Shown here piece by piece: positions 7,309 through 28,000 of a stretch of 44,032 nt of DNA. The number at the start of each line of letters is the position of its first letter. Position 1 is the first letter of the stretch. A model generated the notes under the pieces. It was given only the letters and a program-made list of their open reading frames with translations, ran no database searches and was not told where the DNA came from. This stretch comes from Fibrobacteria bacterium. Lineage in GTDB: Bacteria > Fibrobacterota > Chitinivibrionia > Chitinivibrionales > FEN-1185. Made by a program: the position numbers and the translations under genes. Location: NCBI GenBank assembly GCA_037447435.1, contig JBBIGR010000043.1, forward strand, positions 1 through 44,032. Reading direction: 5' to 3'.

Positions 7309-7348
7309 ACAAAACTGTTTCATTTATACCGGTTCGACACAAAATTGT
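7309..7348. promoter_or_regulatory. Tandem ACA-N4-TGT candidate enhancer boxes
   Basis: ACAAAACTGT 7309-7318 and ACAAAATTGT 7339-7348. Confidence 0.6.
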
Positions 7349-7415: not shown

Positions 7416-7431
7416 TGGTTCGATAATTGCT
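7416..7431 (+). promoter_or_regulatory. sigma54 (-24/-12) promoter for the P-II pair
   Basis: TGGTTCGATAATTGCT, GG-N10-GC. Confidence 0.65.
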
Positions 7432-7492
7432 TCTATTGCATAGATTGTTTCCATGTCATAAACCTCTCACTATGATCGCGCACAAAATCGCC

Positions 7493-7801
7493 ATGAAAAT
7501 GATTACCGCCATAGTTCGGTCCCAAAAATTACAGGACATTCAAACATTGTTGGTAACCGAGGGTATCGAGCGCTTTACCGTTGCTACCGTTATGGGATGC
7601 GGCAGCCAATGCGGATATTCGGAAGGCGGGAAGAAATCGGCGATTGAAGTGAATTTGCTTAAAAAAATCAAATTCGAAATCGAGGTTCCGGCAGATAAAG
7701 TGGGAGGGTTGGTCGATAAGATCATGACCCTGTGCCGTACGCCGCGTTTTGGGGACGGAAAGATTTTTGTCATGAATATTCCCGAATGTTTCGGAATGTA
7801 A
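7493..7801 (+). CDS. P-II family protein, divergent (no Tyr51, short C-terminus)
   Basis: MKMITAIVR, GCGSQ, LLKKIKFEI, TPRFGDGKIF. Confidence 0.85.
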   Translation: MKMITAIVRSQKLQDIQTLLVTEGIERFTVATVMGCGSQCGYSEGGKKSAIEVNLLKKIKFEIEVPADKVGGLVDKIMTLCRTPRFGDGKIFVMNIPECFGM

Positions 7802-7815
7802 GGATATAAAAAACA

Positions 7816-8154
7816 ATGAAAATGATCCACGCGATAATCCAGCCGTCGAAGCTTTCGGATGTCAAGCAAGCCCTGTTCGACGCGGGGCTCGGGAAAATGA
7901 CCGTGTATAGTGTCAATGGCTCCAGCCAATTGACTCATTACCCCGACGTGCATCGCGCCAACGATTATGAGCCGAATTTGATGTCCAAGGTGAAAATGGA
8001 AATTGCCGTAAACGATAAACAGGTCAAGAAAGTCGTGGAAGTCATTGCAAAAGCCGCAAAAAACGTTTTCAACGGCAATGGAAAGATTTTTGTTTACGAT
8101 ATCGAACAATGTTACAGGATCAGGACCGGAGAACAAGGCCCGCAGGCGATATAA
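7816..8154 (+). CDS. P-II family protein, divergent T- and B-loops
   Basis: MKMIHAIIQPSKL, KVKMEIAV, GNGKIFV, RIRTGE. Confidence 0.88.
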   Translation: MKMIHAIIQPSKLSDVKQALFDAGLGKMTVYSVNGSSQLTHYPDVHRANDYEPNLMSKVKMEIAVNDKQVKKVVEVIAKAAKNVFNGNGKIFVYDIEQCYRIRTGEQGPQAI

Positions 8155-16068: not shown

Positions 16069-16893
16069 TTATTTTTTATCAGCTTTTTTGAACCAATCCT
16101 GAATTGCGGGAAGGTTTATATCAATTTGAACGGTTGCAGTTGGTTTTAATGCATCACTATCATTCCAAATATCATACCCTATAATGAAACTCGCATCCGG
16201 AACAATTGCATATGACAACCCGAAAGACAGTGCACCATATCCACTTTTTCCACTGAAATAATCGATAGCAAGCCATAATTTGTCGCTGATCTCACTCATG
16301 GTTCGATCCCATGACAGCAAAAAACCTTTGTCATCCGTCGTTTTATAAGTTTGTGTTGCAGTATCAAATGAACTAAGTACGTAAAATACACTTTTGGGGT
16401 TAACGCCGACGCCGCCTTTGAAGCCGCCAACCGAAAATCGTCCGAGCTTCCAAATGTTTTTTGCAAGCAAACCATAAACAACATTATACGAAGTGGCATT
16501 TGGTGCATCCGCTATTTGTGTTCCGAAATCAAATCCACCAAATGCAATTGCAGGCATATTTTTAAAAAAAGCATCTTCAGGCACGCCCAATTTTGCGTTA
16601 TAATACATTGGATAGTGGTGGTTTGAACCAAGGTCGCGATAATCGATGCCGATTTCCAGCCCCAAATTTTTAAAAGGCAATACACCGACTGTTATGCCTC
16701 CATTTGTGACCGTTGGTGCATCTCCTGCTAATACATCAGTTTTTATGTATGAATCCCAACCGAGGTGAAGAACGCCAAACCCTTGAACATCAGTAGAAGG
16801 AATCCATATCTGTGTTGACGGAGTAGCACTTATATAAGAATACGATAATAACAGTGCCGTAACCATTGTTACTATTGGTAAAAACTTTCTCAT
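16069..16893 (-). CDS. Secreted, probably outer-membrane beta-barrel protein, last gene of the amtB operon
   Basis: Signal peptide MRKFLP...ISA; alternating amphipathic strands (LEIGIDY, LSFGLSY, FIIGYD). Confidence 0.6.
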   Translation of the reverse strand: MRKFLPIVTMVTALLLSYSYISATPSTQIWIPSTDVQGFGVLHLGWDSYIKTDVLAGDAPTVTNGGITVGVLPFKNLGLEIGIDYRDLGSNHHYPMYYNAKLGVPEDAFFKNMPAIAFGGFDFGTQIADAPNATSYNVVYGLLAKNIWKLGRFSVGGFKGGVGVNPKSVFYVLSSFDTATQTYKTTDDKGFLLSWDRTMSEISDKLWLAIDYFSGKSGYGALSFGLSYAIVPDASFIIGYDIWNDSDALKPTATVQIDINLPAIQDWFKKADKK

Positions 16894-16944
16894 GTTCAGG
16901 CTCCTTGTTTGAATATATTCAAAAGTTGTAGTCATTTTTTAACA

Positions 16945-16997: not shown

Positions 16998-17345
16998 TTA
17001 AATAGCTTCAGAACCTCGTTCACGCGTGCGAATTCTTAAAACATCCTCAAGGGGCAGAATAAAAATCTTACCATCGCCGATTTTGCCTTCTGCGCCTGTT
17101 CGTGCGGCCTTTGTTATTGCCTCGATTGTGGGTTCTAAAAATTCATCGTTTACTGCGATTTCGAGTTTTGTTTTACGGACAAAATTGATTTTATATTCAT
17201 GGCCGCGATAAATCTCGGTATGTCCTTTTTGGCGGCCAATACCTTCGGCATCAGTCACGGTTAACCTGAATACTTCGATATGACTTAATGCTTCCTTGAC
17301 AGATTCGAGTCGAGTGGGCTGTATAATTGCGATAATGTATTTCAT
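16998..17345 (-). CDS. glnK: P-II nitrogen regulatory protein (canonical)
   Basis: GIGRQKGHTEIYRGHEY (Tyr51), KIGDGKIF, RIRT; adjacent to amtB. Confidence 0.93.
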   Translation of the reverse strand: MKYIIAIIQPTRLESVKEALSHIEVFRLTVTDAEGIGRQKGHTEIYRGHEYKINFVRKTKLEIAVNDEFLEPTIEAITKAARTGAEGKIGDGKIFILPLEDVLRIRTRERGSEAI

Positions 17346-17411: not shown

Positions 17412-18785
17412 TTAAGCCCTTTCTCCGTGTGCGCTCTGGTCCATACCCACCATTTCCTCCTCAGGCGTTACTCTGAGTCCCACAACAGCCTTGACTATGA
17501 GGAATATCACTATTGTTACAATCGCATCGTAACCAATGGTTGTTCCTATGGCGATTAGCTGAATTTTGACCTGTGCCGGATTGCCGTAAAAAAGCCCCTT
17601 TCCTGCCGAATTGATGGCTGGATCTGCAAGAAATCCGGTCAAAAGCGCACCAATTGTTCCGCCAATGCCATGAATACCAAATGCATCGAGAGTATCATCA
17701 TAACCGAATTTAGATTTTACGAATGCAACCATGCAATAACAAACGACACCGGCAATTGTGCCGATGATTAGGGAGCCGCCAACATTGACAAATCCGGCAG
17801 CCGGAGTGATAGCAACCAAACCCGCAACAGCTCCCGAAGCAAGACCCAGAACCGTTGGTTTTTTATTGAAAAACCATTCTGTAACCATCCAAGCAATAGC
17901 TGCCATAGCAGTGGCGGTATTAGTATTGATAAATGCGGCTCCTGCAATTCCGTTTGCAGCAAGTGCTGAGCCGGCATTAAAACCGAACCATCCAAACCAC
18001 AAAAGCCCGGCGCCTGTGACAGTTGCGGTTAAATTGCAAGGGATAAGGCCCGGTTCGTTACGTTTTCCTAAAAAGAGAGCGCCAATAAGCGCGGCTATAC
18101 CGGCATTGATATGAACAACCGTTCCTCCTGCAAAGTCAAGAGCGCCAAGTTTTGCAAGAAACCCGTTTCCCCAAACCCAGTGAGCTACCGGCAAATAAAC
18201 AAATGTTAACCAGAGAATTGAAAAAAGCACCCAAGCGGAAAATTTCATTCTTTCAATATATGCACCGCTTGCCAATGCTACCGTGATTGCCGCAAAGGTC
18301 AATTGGAATACGACAAAAATAAGTTCGGGAATTGTTCCGGAAAGCGTATCGACTTTAATTCCGTTCATCATGAATTTATGCAGATTACCAATAATTCCAT
18401 GCACATCATCGCCGAAAGCAAGTGTATAGCCATAAACTATCCACAAAACACTTACAATGCAGAATGTGACAAACGACATAGCAATCACATTAAGCGTGTC
18501 CTTTTTCTTTGCTATACCTCCATAAAATAAGGCCAAACCAGGTATGGTCATAAGCATTACCAGTGCTGTTGCCACTATCATCCAGGCTGTATCTCCGGTA
18601 TTTAAAACTGCTACTGGAGCAGAAGTCGCTGGAGCCGGCGCCACAGTTGCCGGCGCAGCAGCTGTACTTACTATTGTCGAAATCGCTTTTGCCGATGTAT
18701 CTGATACTGCAGATTGTCCAACGGAATACGCTACAAAAGCAAGGACAAACCCCACTATCATTGCTACCAGTGCTTTTTTAATCAT
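17412..18785 (-). CDS. amtB: Ammonium transporter
   Basis: GLALFYGG, DFAGGTVVH, LWFGWFGFNAGS, DDTLDAFGIHG. Confidence 0.97.
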   Translation of the reverse strand: MIKKALVAMIVGFVLAFVAYSVGQSAVSDTSAKAISTIVSTAAAPATVAPAPATSAPVAVLNTGDTAWMIVATALVMLMTIPGLALFYGGIAKKKDTLNVIAMSFVTFCIVSVLWIVYGYTLAFGDDVHGIIGNLHKFMMNGIKVDTLSGTIPELIFVVFQLTFAAITVALASGAYIERMKFSAWVLFSILWLTFVYLPVAHWVWGNGFLAKLGALDFAGGTVVHINAGIAALIGALFLGKRNEPGLIPCNLTATVTGAGLLWFGWFGFNAGSALAANGIAGAAFINTNTATAMAAIAWMVTEWFFNKKPTVLGLASGAVAGLVAITPAAGFVNVGGSLIIGTIAGVVCYCMVAFVKSKFGYDDTLDAFGIHGIGGTIGALLTGFLADPAINSAGKGLFYGNPAQVKIQLIAIGTTIGYDAIVTIVIFLIVKAVVGLRVTPEEEMVGMDQSAHGERA

Positions 18786-19016
18786 TCTTTCCTCCTATTT
18801 TTAAAAATGACAATAACGATATAACTAAAAGCATTTCTTTAAACACGAACATTTCATTCACATTTCTAACCTTTAATGGGACTGCATCTGCTTCATATGG
18901 GAATTTCCTATCTAGGTTGAGGTTTGTTTTTATTTTGTGTTATGTATTGTTCTCAATATTTTGGTTTTTTATTTTGTAATATCCTGAATGCGTGATAAAT
19001 TTTCGTAAATAAATAA

Positions 19017-19099: not shown

Positions 19100-19138
19100 A
19101 CATTTTTGTTTAATTTTTTGTAAAAAATACAAAATTGT
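19100..19138. promoter_or_regulatory. Tandem ACA-N4-TGT candidate enhancer boxes
   Basis: ACATTTTTGT 19100-19109 and ACAAAATTGT 19129-19138. Confidence 0.65.
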
Positions 19139-19313: not shown

Positions 19314-19598
19314 TTATGGAAGCAAAAAATGGCCAATATTGGGGGAAGTTGTTTGGTTTTTTTCGGATGAAAGGTTATACCATTTGGTAAGATTATCGCT
19401 CGTATCCGGATTTTGTCTTTTAATTAAGATAAAATCGATATTGTATTTTTTGATTTTATACTGAATTTTGCGTTTGCTAATTCCCAGTAGTTTAGCAGCC
19501 TTGCTTTGATTTCCATGAGTGTCTTTAAGAGTTTTCTCTATAATATTTTTCTCAAAAGAGTTAATAATTTGATCCAAGTTTTTTTGCAATTGTTCCAT
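19314..19598 (-). CDS. Stand-alone Fis-type HTH protein similar to the C-terminus of the upstream activator
   Basis: FEKNIIEKTLKDTHGNQSKAAKLLGISKRKIQYKIKKY; RBS AGGAG upstream. Confidence 0.85.
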   Translation of the reverse strand: MEQLQKNLDQIINSFEKNIIEKTLKDTHGNQSKAAKLLGISKRKIQYKIKKYNIDFILIKRQNPDTSDNLTKWYNLSSEKNQTTSPNIGHFLLP

Positions 19599-19637
19599 AC
19601 TTTTATACTCCTGCGATTGTGAAGAAAAGTATGTAAT

Positions 19638-19653
19638 TGCAATAGACGTGCCA
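19638..19653 (-). promoter_or_regulatory. sigma54 promoter of the mini-HTH gene
   Basis: Minus strand TGGCACGTCTATTGCA. Confidence 0.85.
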
Positions 19654-19665
19654 GATAATAATCCT

Positions 19666-21326: not shown

Positions 21327-21339
21327 CACAAAAATGTAT
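21327..21339. promoter_or_regulatory. ACA-N4-TGT box upstream of the activator gene (possible autoregulation)
   Basis: CACAAAAATGTAT, similar to CACAAAATTGTAT (7338) and TACAAAATTGTAT (19128). Confidence 0.5.
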
Positions 21340-25052: not shown

Positions 25053-28000
25053 ATGACAAAGTTTGCCCTTAAAAACCCGGTCTCGGTCATTGTTTTGGCC
25101 GTCATATTATTTATTACCGGGCTCACAAGCTTTACCGGAATGCGGCGGGAGTCTTTTCCTGAAATCAAGATCCCGTATATTTTCGTCACGACATTGTATC
25201 CGGGCGCCAATCCGCCCGAAATCGAAAATCTCATTACCCAAAAAATCGAAGACAAGCTCGACGGTATAGACGGTGTCAAGACCATGACCAGTTCGAGTAA
25301 CGAGAGTTATTCGAACATATTTTTGGAATTCGATCCGTCGGTCAAGGTCGAAGACGCGCTTCGCCGGGTCAAAGACAAGGTCGATCAGGCTCGGGGCGAT
25401 CTGCCGACCGATGCCGAAGATCCGATTTGTCAGGAATTGAATTTTAACACCATTCCCATTGCGAACATCGCTTTGTACGCGGACTACGATCTCGAACGCC
25501 TCGAAACACTGGCCGATAATTTAAAAGACAAAATGGCCAAAATACCGGGAGTTCTGGAGGCGAAGGTATTGGGAAAACAGGACAAGGAAATAGCCGTCGA
25601 CGTCGATCCGGCTCTGCTTCGTCAATATGGGTTGACGTTGCACGATATTTCGCAGGCAATATCCACGCAGCATGTGAACATCCCCGGCGGTACCATGAAA
25701 ACCTCCGGATTCAGATTTTCGGTGAAAGTAACTGGCGAACTTTCCGACCCGCAATTGTTCAACGATCTCATAGTGCGTTCCCTTAACGACAAAATGATCA
25801 GAATAAAGGACGTTGCAAAAGTATCCTTTACCTATACTCGCGACCGGCAGTCGATTTCCCGCACCAATGGCAAACCGTCGCTGACCTTGACCGTTGCGAA
25901 ACGCACCGGCGAAGACATCGTCCGTATCGTCGAAGAAGCGAAGAAAATAATCGAAGACGAACGGCCGCATTGGCCTTCCGGCACGCATTGCGAAATCACT
26001 TTCGATATGTCGAAAAATATCAAGGAAATGGTAGACGAATTGCAAAACCATTTACTCATGGGTATAATGCTCGTTTTGCTCGTGCTGAGCTTTTTCCTCG
26101 GCGTCCGCAATTCGATGTTCATTTCAACGGCAATACCGTTCTCGATGGCAATGGGCTTTATCGTGCTCAGCTATATGGGCGTTACCCTCAACATGGTCGT
26201 GCTCTTTTCTCTTGTTATGGCGCTCGGTATGCTCGTCGACGACGGCATCGTGGTCGTCGAAAATATTTATCGCCATTTACAAATGGGTAAAGGCCGCTTC
26301 CAGGCCGCGCTCGACGGTACCAAAGAAGTCATGGTGCCCGTGTTTACGGCGACGCTTACGACCGTTGCGGCGTTTGCTCCCGTTCTTTGGATGCCGGGCA
26401 TTATGGGCGAATTCATGAAATATCTCCCTATAACCGTGGGAATAACGCTTTCCGGATCGCTTTTCGTTGCATTCGTGTTTAATCCTGTTTTCGCATCCCT
26501 GACAATGACCGCAAAGGATGTCAGCAAAATGGATGGCGAATCAAAAGGATGGTTTGAAAATTTCAAAGATCTGTATCGCAAATCCCTGCAGCGTGCGCTC
26601 AATCATCCGATTTTACTTGCGCTGTTGTGCATCGCATTCGTGATTTCCGGGATAATGGCGTATGGGAAATTCGGGCCCGGCGTCGTCTTTTTTCCCATCA
26701 GCGAACCGGACGTGGCTTCGGTACAAATCGAAGGCCCCTTGTCGCAAGACATTTCGATTACCGATGCTACTTTGTCTATTCCGGAAAAAATATCTTTGGC
26801 AATGTCCAAGGATATCGCATCGGTCAAAACCGTTAATACGATAGTAGGATCCGGAAAAGGAAACCGTTTCGGCGGCGGACAATCCGAATCAAACAAGGGG
26901 TATTTGGATCTGGTATTCGACGACTTTGAGGAACGCACCGTACCTGCGCATACGACAATGAAATGGCTTGAAGATACGTTGCCGAGCCTTGTTCCGGGCG
27001 TAAAGCTCCAGGTTATTAAGCAGCAAAACGGACCGCCGACGGGCAAACCAATCGAACTCGAAGTCACCGGCGACGATTATGCGCAGCTCAGCGTGCTTGC
27101 CGATTCCTTGAAACAAATACTTAAAAAAATTCCGGGGTTGACAAATGTCACACATGATTACGATCCGGCTCGTCCCGAAATCCGAGTCAACGTCGACCGT
27201 GAACAGGCGAAGCGAATGGGGCTGTCCACCTTGGATGTCGCCTCTGCGGTTCGCGGTGCGATTTACGGAAACGAAGCAGGGAAGTTCCGTGTCGGGAAAG
27301 ACGAATATAAAATCATGGTCCGTCTTAACCCCGATGTCCGTGAAAATTTAAACGGCCTCAACCAGATCGTCGTGTCCAAAGAAGGCAAAGAGGCACCGCT
27401 TACCAGTTTGGCTCTCATCAGCCAGGGGGCGAACATCGCATCGATCAAACATGTCGACGGTAAACGTACCATACAAGTGACTGCGGAACTTGCGCCCGGC
27501 CAAAAAGACGAGCGTAAACCAAAATCGCTCGCTATGGCTGCAATTAAAAAACTCGTTCCGCCGATGGGATATACGATAAATCCGGGAAGCGGCAACAGAA
27601 TGCAGGCGGATTCGCAACAATTCCTCGTCAAGGCGTTTTTCATAGCGATGAGTCTGGTTTTCCTGACCATGGTTTTCCAGTTCAACTCGCTGTTCCAACC
27701 GTTTTTGATTTTGTTTGGAATATTGCTGTCGTTGGGAGGGGTGTTCTGGGGGCTTTTAATCACCAATCAATTTAGTGCGGTTGTCAATATGCTTACCGGC
27801 GGAAAAGCGAACATGGGCGGTGTGACGTTTGCAATTCTCATGAGCGGTGTCGGAATCATCGCACTTGCCGGTGTTGTCGCCAAAAACGGCATCGTACTTA
27901 TCGATTACATGAATCGCCTGCGGAGAGAAGGAAAACCGTTACGCGACGCGGTTATCGAAGGCGGCGCAACGCGTTTACGCCCCGTTCTTTTAACGGCGAT

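Follow-up and report, generated by a model that had tools for sequence, protein, structure and literature searches.

A σ54 activator gene and the ammonium transporter gene amtB are near neighbors in a 44,032-nucleotide stretch of DNA (below, the window) from a Fibrobacteria bacterium (assembly GCA_037447435.1, contig JBBIGR010000043.1), and between them sits a reading frame of 94 residues. We wondered whether this frame, here called the mini, is a gene at all, whether it descends from the neighboring activator, as the original prediction from the sequence had it, and what such a protein might do at a locus where activator, mini, ACA-N4-TGT boxes, and promoter all lie within 2.3 kb (Table 1).

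Table 1. Features of the mini locus, with positions counted in the window
Feature	Position	Strand	Remark
Mini gene, 94-aa stand-alone Fis-type (HTH_8) protein	19314-19598	-	ATG start
HTH_8 match in the mini	19443-19559	-	Pfam, residues 14-52
C-terminal Leu-Leu-Pro-stop of the mini	19314-19325	-	protein-level conservation
RBS AGGAG of the mini	19612-19608	-	9 nt before ATG
σ54 (-24/-12) motif of the mini, TGGCAC-GTCTA-TTGCA	19653-19638	-	kept in 17/17 loci
Gap between activator and mini	19599-19665		67 bp
GAF-AAA+-HTH σ54 activator, 526 aa	19666-21246	-	
Single ACA-N4-TGT box before the activator	21328-21337		82 bp before activator start
ACA-N4-TGT box pair, predicted enhancer of the amtB promoter	19100-19138		29 bp apart
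σ54 motif of the amtB operon	19032-19017	-	
amtB, ammonium transporter	17412-18785	-	predicted target
glnK-type P-II gene	16998-17345	-	predicted target
Gene after glnK	16069-16935	-	without Pfam or NCBIfam match

Identity and conservation of the mini gene

The mini matches the Pfam profile HTH_8 with an E value of 1.5e-14 and 53.9 bits, above the gathering cut-off of 22, and carries HTH_8 as a single domain without AAA+. Residues 1 to 56 comprise a dimer helix and the HTH and are followed by a tail (residues 57 to 94); AlphaFold models residues 1 to 60 confidently as a three-helix fold and the tail with low confidence. The solved structures nearest to this fold are DNA-binding domains of σ54 activators and Fis, with no Foldseek hit at an E value of 0.001. 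Among the 21 HTH_8 matches in the genome, the mini is the sole one outside a long frame (449 to 606 aa), and no further stand-alone HTH_8 was found in the window's genome or in four relatives from its genus. Enhancer-binding proteins of σ54 are recognized by an AAA+ domain with a GAFTGA loop; the mini has neither, and the neighboring gene has both (PF00158 and GSFTGA).

A protein search restricted to 51 to 165 residues recovered 19 relatives of the mini, which measure 68 to 94 aa and have aligned starts. Across 61 related genomes, short-frame minis were confined to the window's genus, where they occur in five of six genomes, one of which has two copies; one extra frame of 87 aa turned out to belong to an activator cut off at the end of its contig. 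When 251 Fibrobacterota genomes were searched with a profile, the mini again appeared in this genus alone. It was not found in the 245 other genomes of that search, and it is absent from one member of the genus itself (G005, 96% complete), none of whose ten HTH_8 matches is a stand-alone protein, which indicates that the mini is dispensable for the regulon.

The original prediction had named dN/dS as a check, and over the HTH (residues 5 to 56, Nei-Gojobori method) this ratio is low, at 0.05 to 0.13 in the four closest pairs and with a median of 0.129 for pairs with pS below 0.7. In the same four closest pairs, the tail shows high values of 0.35 to 0.85. Most mini pairs are saturated at synonymous sites, including all 17 that involve the window's genome, for which pN is at most 0.28. 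Judged by these substitution patterns, the HTH of the mini is under purifying selection. A chance ORF or a pseudogene is ruled out by the aligned starts, the low dN/dS over the HTH, and the conserved promoter (below), and so is a frameshifted tail of the activator, whose own HTH and stop codon are intact while the mini is preceded by a separate RBS and promoter motif. It is likewise extremely improbable that the mini is a non-functional remnant of a partial gene duplication: the narrow distribution and the loosely constrained tail would suit such a remnant, but the reading is largely refuted by the low dN/dS over the HTH in a family with saturated synonymous sites, and against it stand also the intact frames, 88 to 94 aa long with aligned starts, and the conserved promoter, RBS, and C terminus.

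The tail itself contains a feature that the original prediction had missed, namely a conserved tryptophan followed by a C-terminal Leu-Leu-Pro (LLP). The tryptophan is present in 26 of 36 distinct members and the LLP end in 24; the 12 members that lack LLP may in part be truncated. Since all four proline codons and all three stop codons occur, LLP as an overlapping DNA element is ruled out, and an arrest peptide of the TnaC kind is thought unlikely given that the spacing from Trp to Pro varies.

Promoter and genomic context of the mini

The RBS and the TGGCAC-N5-TTGCA promoter proposed for the gap upstream of the mini are located as claimed. Exact matches to the σ54 motif number only two in the window, at the mini and amtB promoters; when one mismatch is allowed, there are four against 1.47 expected, a count reached in 8 of 100 shuffles, so that the motif by itself is weak evidence. 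Its conservation across loci, in turn, is strong evidence for a predicted σ54 promoter of the mini: the motif stands 50 to 92 bp before the mini start in all 17 loci with upstream DNA, with 0.0024 matches expected per 150 bp. Because these loci include near-copies (L124/G003, L119/G002b, and L127/L128), they are not 17 independent cases. The proposal of a real and conserved DNA-binding-only paralogue is thus upheld by HTH_8 without AAA+, by the low dN/dS over the HTH, and by the mini's own σ54 motif.

The order activator-mini-amtB, whose conservation had been suggested as a further check, is indeed conserved. The mini lies between the activator and amtB in nine of the 17 loci, follows the activator at a contig end in L129, and precedes amtB-glnK without an adjoining activator in L120. 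The remaining six loci show an arrangement that the original prediction did not contain, in which the mini is divergent from another GAF activator gene, whose product shares about 45% identity with the first; amt or P-II genes follow in four of these six. Long genes (628 to 648 aa) with a P-II-like part adjoin glnK and a mini gene at L233 (8322-10268) and L128 (1878-3764). Between activator and amtB, the minus strand showed no terminator-like site, and the window gave no match to Rfam.

Two further observations concern the amtB operon. The gene after glnK is conserved beside amtB-glnK in relatives, and its sequence resembles that of an exported outer-membrane protein. The amtB leader includes a short ORF with its own RBS (MKQMQSH, 18873-18896, minus strand), which is kept as MK-x-x-S-S-like 6- to 7-mers with a conserved CAAC...AGGA upstream in L117, L121, L122, L124, L126, G001, and G003. 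This region could be a leader peptide or a site for an RNA-binding protein; the leader yielded no consensus RNA fold among relatives and no Rfam match.

Relationship between the mini and the activator family

At first glance, the mini looks like a copy of its neighbor's DNA-binding end. The alignment that had been noted with the C terminus of the upstream gene was recovered, with 28 of 52 identities to residues 468-519 of the activator (54% over 52 aa in BLASTP), and the next best protein in the genome reaches 36.5%. The recognition helix does fall within this alignment, as had been stated, but it is not identical in the two proteins, reading SKRKIQYKI in the mini and TKRIIQYKI in the activator. 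Across the families, 16 minis have T/S-K-R-K-I-Q-Y-K and 50 activators T-K-R-I/V-I/V-Q-Y-K, which leaves a single fixed difference in the helix: Lys in 16/16 minis, or 35/36 once the set is widened, against Ile or Val in 50/50 activators. This exchange could alter the site that the mini recognizes. Otherwise, the minis keep the K/R-R-x-x-Q-Y-K of the activators, distinct from the helices of Fis and of the NifA type. The dimer helix differs systematically (LDxIxxxFE in minis, FExMVAxYE in activators), and the net charge of the HTH is +4.7 in the 16 minis versus +0.9 in the 50 activators.

In a tree of minis and activators (53 rows, 55 columns, including five genome-derived minis from Desulfobacterota), the minis form a clade (support 100/99) outside the Chitinivibrionales activators (94/79), with support of 69/28 for a placement as their sister group. 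Their mean identity is 46% to the Chitinivibrionales activators and again 46% to those of Desulfobacterota. By its sequence, then, the mini derives from this activator family. The idea of a duplicate of the neighboring activator therefore holds as far as family origin goes, and is weakened as to a local duplication; a recent tandem duplication is unsupported in view of the separate clade, the equal distances, and the low support for the sister placement.

The activator and its predicted nitrogen regulon

We next considered what kind of activator the neighbor is. Its closest named relatives belong to Chitinivibrionales and other Fibrobacterota. With the NifA model TIGR01817, it scores 514.8 bits, below the cut-off of 528.85, and the nifH gene found in the genome adjoins a different GAF activator, so that it does not qualify as NifA. 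That nifH, which lies in the region 167-3865 of contig C86 of G000, scores above the TIGR01287 cut-off, has its own σ54 motif, and is divergent from a NifA-like GAF activator gene; a strong single ACA-N4-TGT box, without a σ54 motif, lies upstream of this activator gene. No nifH above this cut-off was detected in the four genus relatives searched.

The neighbor is instead likely of the DVU1949 type, a predicted assignment that draws on the occurrence of ACA-N4-TGT sites before σ54 promoters of amt, glnA, and gltB. According to the available part of PMC4641369, DVU1949 of Desulfovibrio vulgaris is a predicted single-component σ54 regulator of nitrogen metabolism, with predicted sites centered on ACA-WWWW-TGT and targets annotated as nitrogen metabolism and transport. 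The boxes in the window equal this motif, which is itself a prediction, and the position of DVU1949 after iorA/iorB given in the same excerpt matches that of a Desulfovibrio relative 44% identical to the window's activator, which follows iorA and an iorB-like gene. In supplementary file 2 of PMC4641369, the HTH of the iorAB-linked Desulfovibrio activator sits under DVU0569 and not DVU1949, so the putative orthology to DVU1949 rests on gene context and motif; the first rows of that file may be mislabelled. In contrast to the window's activator, the part of PMC4641369 at hand mentions no stand-alone HTH partner for DVU1949. Tandem or nearby pairs of full-length activators from this family occur near amtB-glnK in relatives without the mini (L014, L015, L018-L021, and L025).

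Ahead of amtB, the box pair reads ACATTTTTGT (19100-19109) and ACAAAATTGT (19129-19138), and a pair with the same 29-bp distance is found in all five genomes of the genus that have the mini. To score boxes, we derived a matrix from 23 training boxes in metagenome loci; these boxes themselves score 12.9 to 17.7. Among the genome loci, 28 of 34 σ54 motifs have a box within 200 bp, as compared with 4.9% of random windows, and the count is 22 of 27 once L001, L009, and L011, which are near-copies of, or congeneric with, training loci, and the duplicate L114 are left out. The boxed promoters serve amtB, glnA-like, and gltB-like genes (translations read by eye) and include genera in which no mini was detected, so that activation can probably proceed without the mini. 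On the scale of the window's genome, the signal is weak, with two of 162 σ54-like motifs having an upstream box that scores at least 12 and 0.56 expected. On contig C24 of G000 (26514-26679), divergent σ54 motifs with weaker boxes in common serve another amt-glnK on one side and a gene resembling glutamate synthase on the other.

Upstream of the mini promoter, by contrast, the window has no box, as had been observed originally: the best score in 600 bp is 2.2 versus 12.9 and above for the training boxes. A box lies at most 260 bp upstream of the mini's σ54 motif in 12 of the 17 loci and is lacking in five (the window's genome, L129, G004, G001, and L122). In the six divergent loci, it is about 240 to 250 bp away and could serve the second GAF activator instead. 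The strong single box before the activator, together with upstream boxes at 14 of 25 related activators, suggests autoregulation, which makes it a likely autoregulatory site. Another strong box (7339-7348) is located upstream of two divergent P-II genes in tandem (7427-8154) without an exact σ54 motif, and L001, L117, and L125 have a similar P-II pair close to their amtB locus.

A second stand-alone family in Desulfobacterota

Stand-alone HTH proteins of this kind are not confined to the minis, which the original prediction had missed. At the metagenome locus L132, a different stand-alone HTH of 75 aa directly follows amtB-glnK, behind a box pair and a σ54 motif, and a cluster member of one of its relatives is annotated as Syntrophus sp. 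In the phylum to which a Desulfobacteraceae record belongs, searches of 301 and of 401 genomes revealed at least seven short-frame members in at least six of 401 genomes, counts that are lower bounds since 13 to 19 candidates were scored per genome; all six genomes also hold a full-length match. Seven of eight loci have the gene directly after a P-II gene, and in the eighth, it is the first gene after a σ54 motif, upstream of a PtsP-amt-P-II cluster. These proteins have neither the LLP tail nor the Lys change. When one origin of the two families was compared with two, p-AU was 0.76 in a quick tree and 0.48 in a careful one (55 columns), values that favor neither, and the two may have arisen separately in two phyla. 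Further short proteins with the same recognition helix occur among the 150 best representatives, some of which may be gene fragments.

Possible roles of the mini

Which function would fit a DNA-binding end that is encoded beside its parent type of activator? By the mechanism of bEBPs, a protein without AAA+ cannot open a σ54 promoter, and this would hold for the mini. Given its activator-type helix, its predicted σ54 promoter in the same regulon, and a promoter layout that does without it, a competitor is the simplest proposal. We therefore favor, at a little below an even chance, the reading that the mini would be a short-lived competitor at ACA-N4-TGT boxes, providing negative feedback that damps amtB-glnK transcription. 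Nitrogen shortage would turn on the activator, which would fire both the amtB and the mini promoter; the mini would then dimerize like other Fis-type domains and bind the same boxes, aided by its more basic surface, and a box pair occupied in this way would hinder activator assembly, so that the response would be capped or delayed. In the weakest step, the non-polar LLP end would keep the mini short-lived or scarce, and the brake would lift quickly. Because no box precedes the mini promoter in the window, its firing would depend on the boxes located 500 bp downstream, on activator that acts from solution, or on transcription that continues from the activator gene. As for the tail, a terminal proline reportedly induces SsrA tagging. 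In Mycoplasma, the available part of PMC7246954 describes that non-polar C termini lowered protein levels via degradation and that a C-terminal proline gave average levels; by analogy, LLP as a degron is plausible.

As the main alternative, the activator might induce the mini as a Nac-like relay that represses or activates other (σ70-type) promoters, such as that of the activator's own gene or those at a different group of sites for which the Ile-to-Lys change would select. The fixed change in the recognition helix would agree with this, as would the single boxes without a σ54 motif before the activator, the P-II pair, and the NifA-like gene on C86, the upstream boxes of related activators, and the second type of mini, divergent from another GAF activator. 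We nevertheless hold a relay to be unlikely, if worth keeping in mind, because the same boxes lie upstream in relatives where no mini was detected and because the full-length activator could repress such sites itself, as GnfM does at gdhA according to the accessible part of PMC2995071.

The conserved ends of the tail point in another direction. Trp and LLP flank a variable stretch of low confidence, as expected of short binding motifs, and linkage to P-II genes is constant; the mini might thus be an inhibitor or sensor at the protein level, forming dead heterodimers with the activator's HTH or docking its W...LLP tail on GlnK or the activator in a nitrogen-gated manner, for which a TnrA/GlnR-like tail is the model. 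The systematically different dimer helices speak against heterodimers, however, the Desulfobacterota family has no such tail, and a recognition helix under such strong selection suggests a role in binding DNA, which makes this reading quite improbable. Still less can be said for a Fis-like architectural co-activator that bends DNA or helps to load the activator at the amtB promoter, an option raised by the original prediction. Although the Fis-type fold, the basic surface, and the mini's place as the sole stand-alone HTH_8 in these genomes would suit it, the same layout of boxes and promoter exists where no mini is detected, and the recognition helix is of the activator type and not that of Fis; we regard this role as very improbable.

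If the competitor reading is correct, the brake would operate in the nitrogen regulon of anaerobes with a DVU1949-type activator, which has received little study. It is tempting to speculate more broadly that GAF-type nitrogen activators of anaerobes have budded off their DNA-binding end as a dedicated, self-induced, short-lived antagonist in two phyla, here one Chitinivibrionales genus and Syntrophus-like Desulfobacterota, a generalization that we consider possible and rather doubtful. Were it true, σ54 activators would be controlled in a novel manner, with the enhancer occluded by a truncated paralogue that carries a degradation tail.

Comparison with known systems

Like Fis, the mini is a small, stand-alone protein with the HTH_8 fold. 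It falls short of the Fis models (32 versus 99 bits for NF001659 and 25.2 versus 122 for NF002517), and where Fis has the helix NR(G/S/N)TLRKK, the mini has that of the activators; it also has no N-terminal extension, carries a C-terminal tail, and is placed under a σ54 motif beside amtB-glnK. In another tree, built without five genome-derived Desulfobacterota minis, six Fis-like rows form a separate clade and the minis cluster with the activators. Helix, tree, and model scores thus rule out an ordinary Fis, and by its sequence the mini is a member of the HTH_8 domain family that is neither a Fis protein nor an enhancer-binding protein. Nac of E. coli is a small LysR-type regulator expressed from a σ54 promoter in the nitrogen regulon and unrelated to its activator; size, promoter type, and regulon are shared with the mini, which differs in being homologous to the activator's DNA-binding end. 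The ancestral link between Fis and NtrC is said to go back to Morett and Bork in 1998. This link is cited in the available part of PMC7166090, and the mini, if the broader reading given above is true, would replay in a living system the proposed origin of Fis from a protein of the NtrC type, without having left the regulon of its parent.

Other nitrogen regulators share single traits with the locus. VnfA1 and VnfA3 of Azotobacter vinelandii, in the accessible part of PMC9542535, are paralogues induced in a nitrogen regulon that bind the same target promoters; they are co-activating enhancer-binding proteins, whereas the mini has no AAA+. Geobacter GnfM represents another route, with a two-component activator and antitermination, and Fis is not mentioned in the part of PMC2995071 at hand. 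In the open-licence literature that we searched, we found no description of an HTH protein that derives from an activator and stands alone beside amtB-glnK.

Enhancer-binding proteins can have dedicated partners, among them NifL and FleN as well as PspA and HrpV, which are anti-activators of σ54 activators. The proposed role of the mini is likewise negative; these partners have no kinship with the activator and target it directly, whereas the mini comes from within the activator family and is predicted to act on DNA. If it competes, as we think nearly as probable as not, it would resemble a dominant-negative truncation of its activator. To our knowledge, the known brakes on σ54 activators are all unrelated proteins that bind the activator, and one that consists of the DNA-binding end of the activator and is induced by it would represent another, very compact type of feedback. 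The mini also offers a testable intermediate for the origin of stand-alone Fis-like proteins from enhancer-binding proteins.
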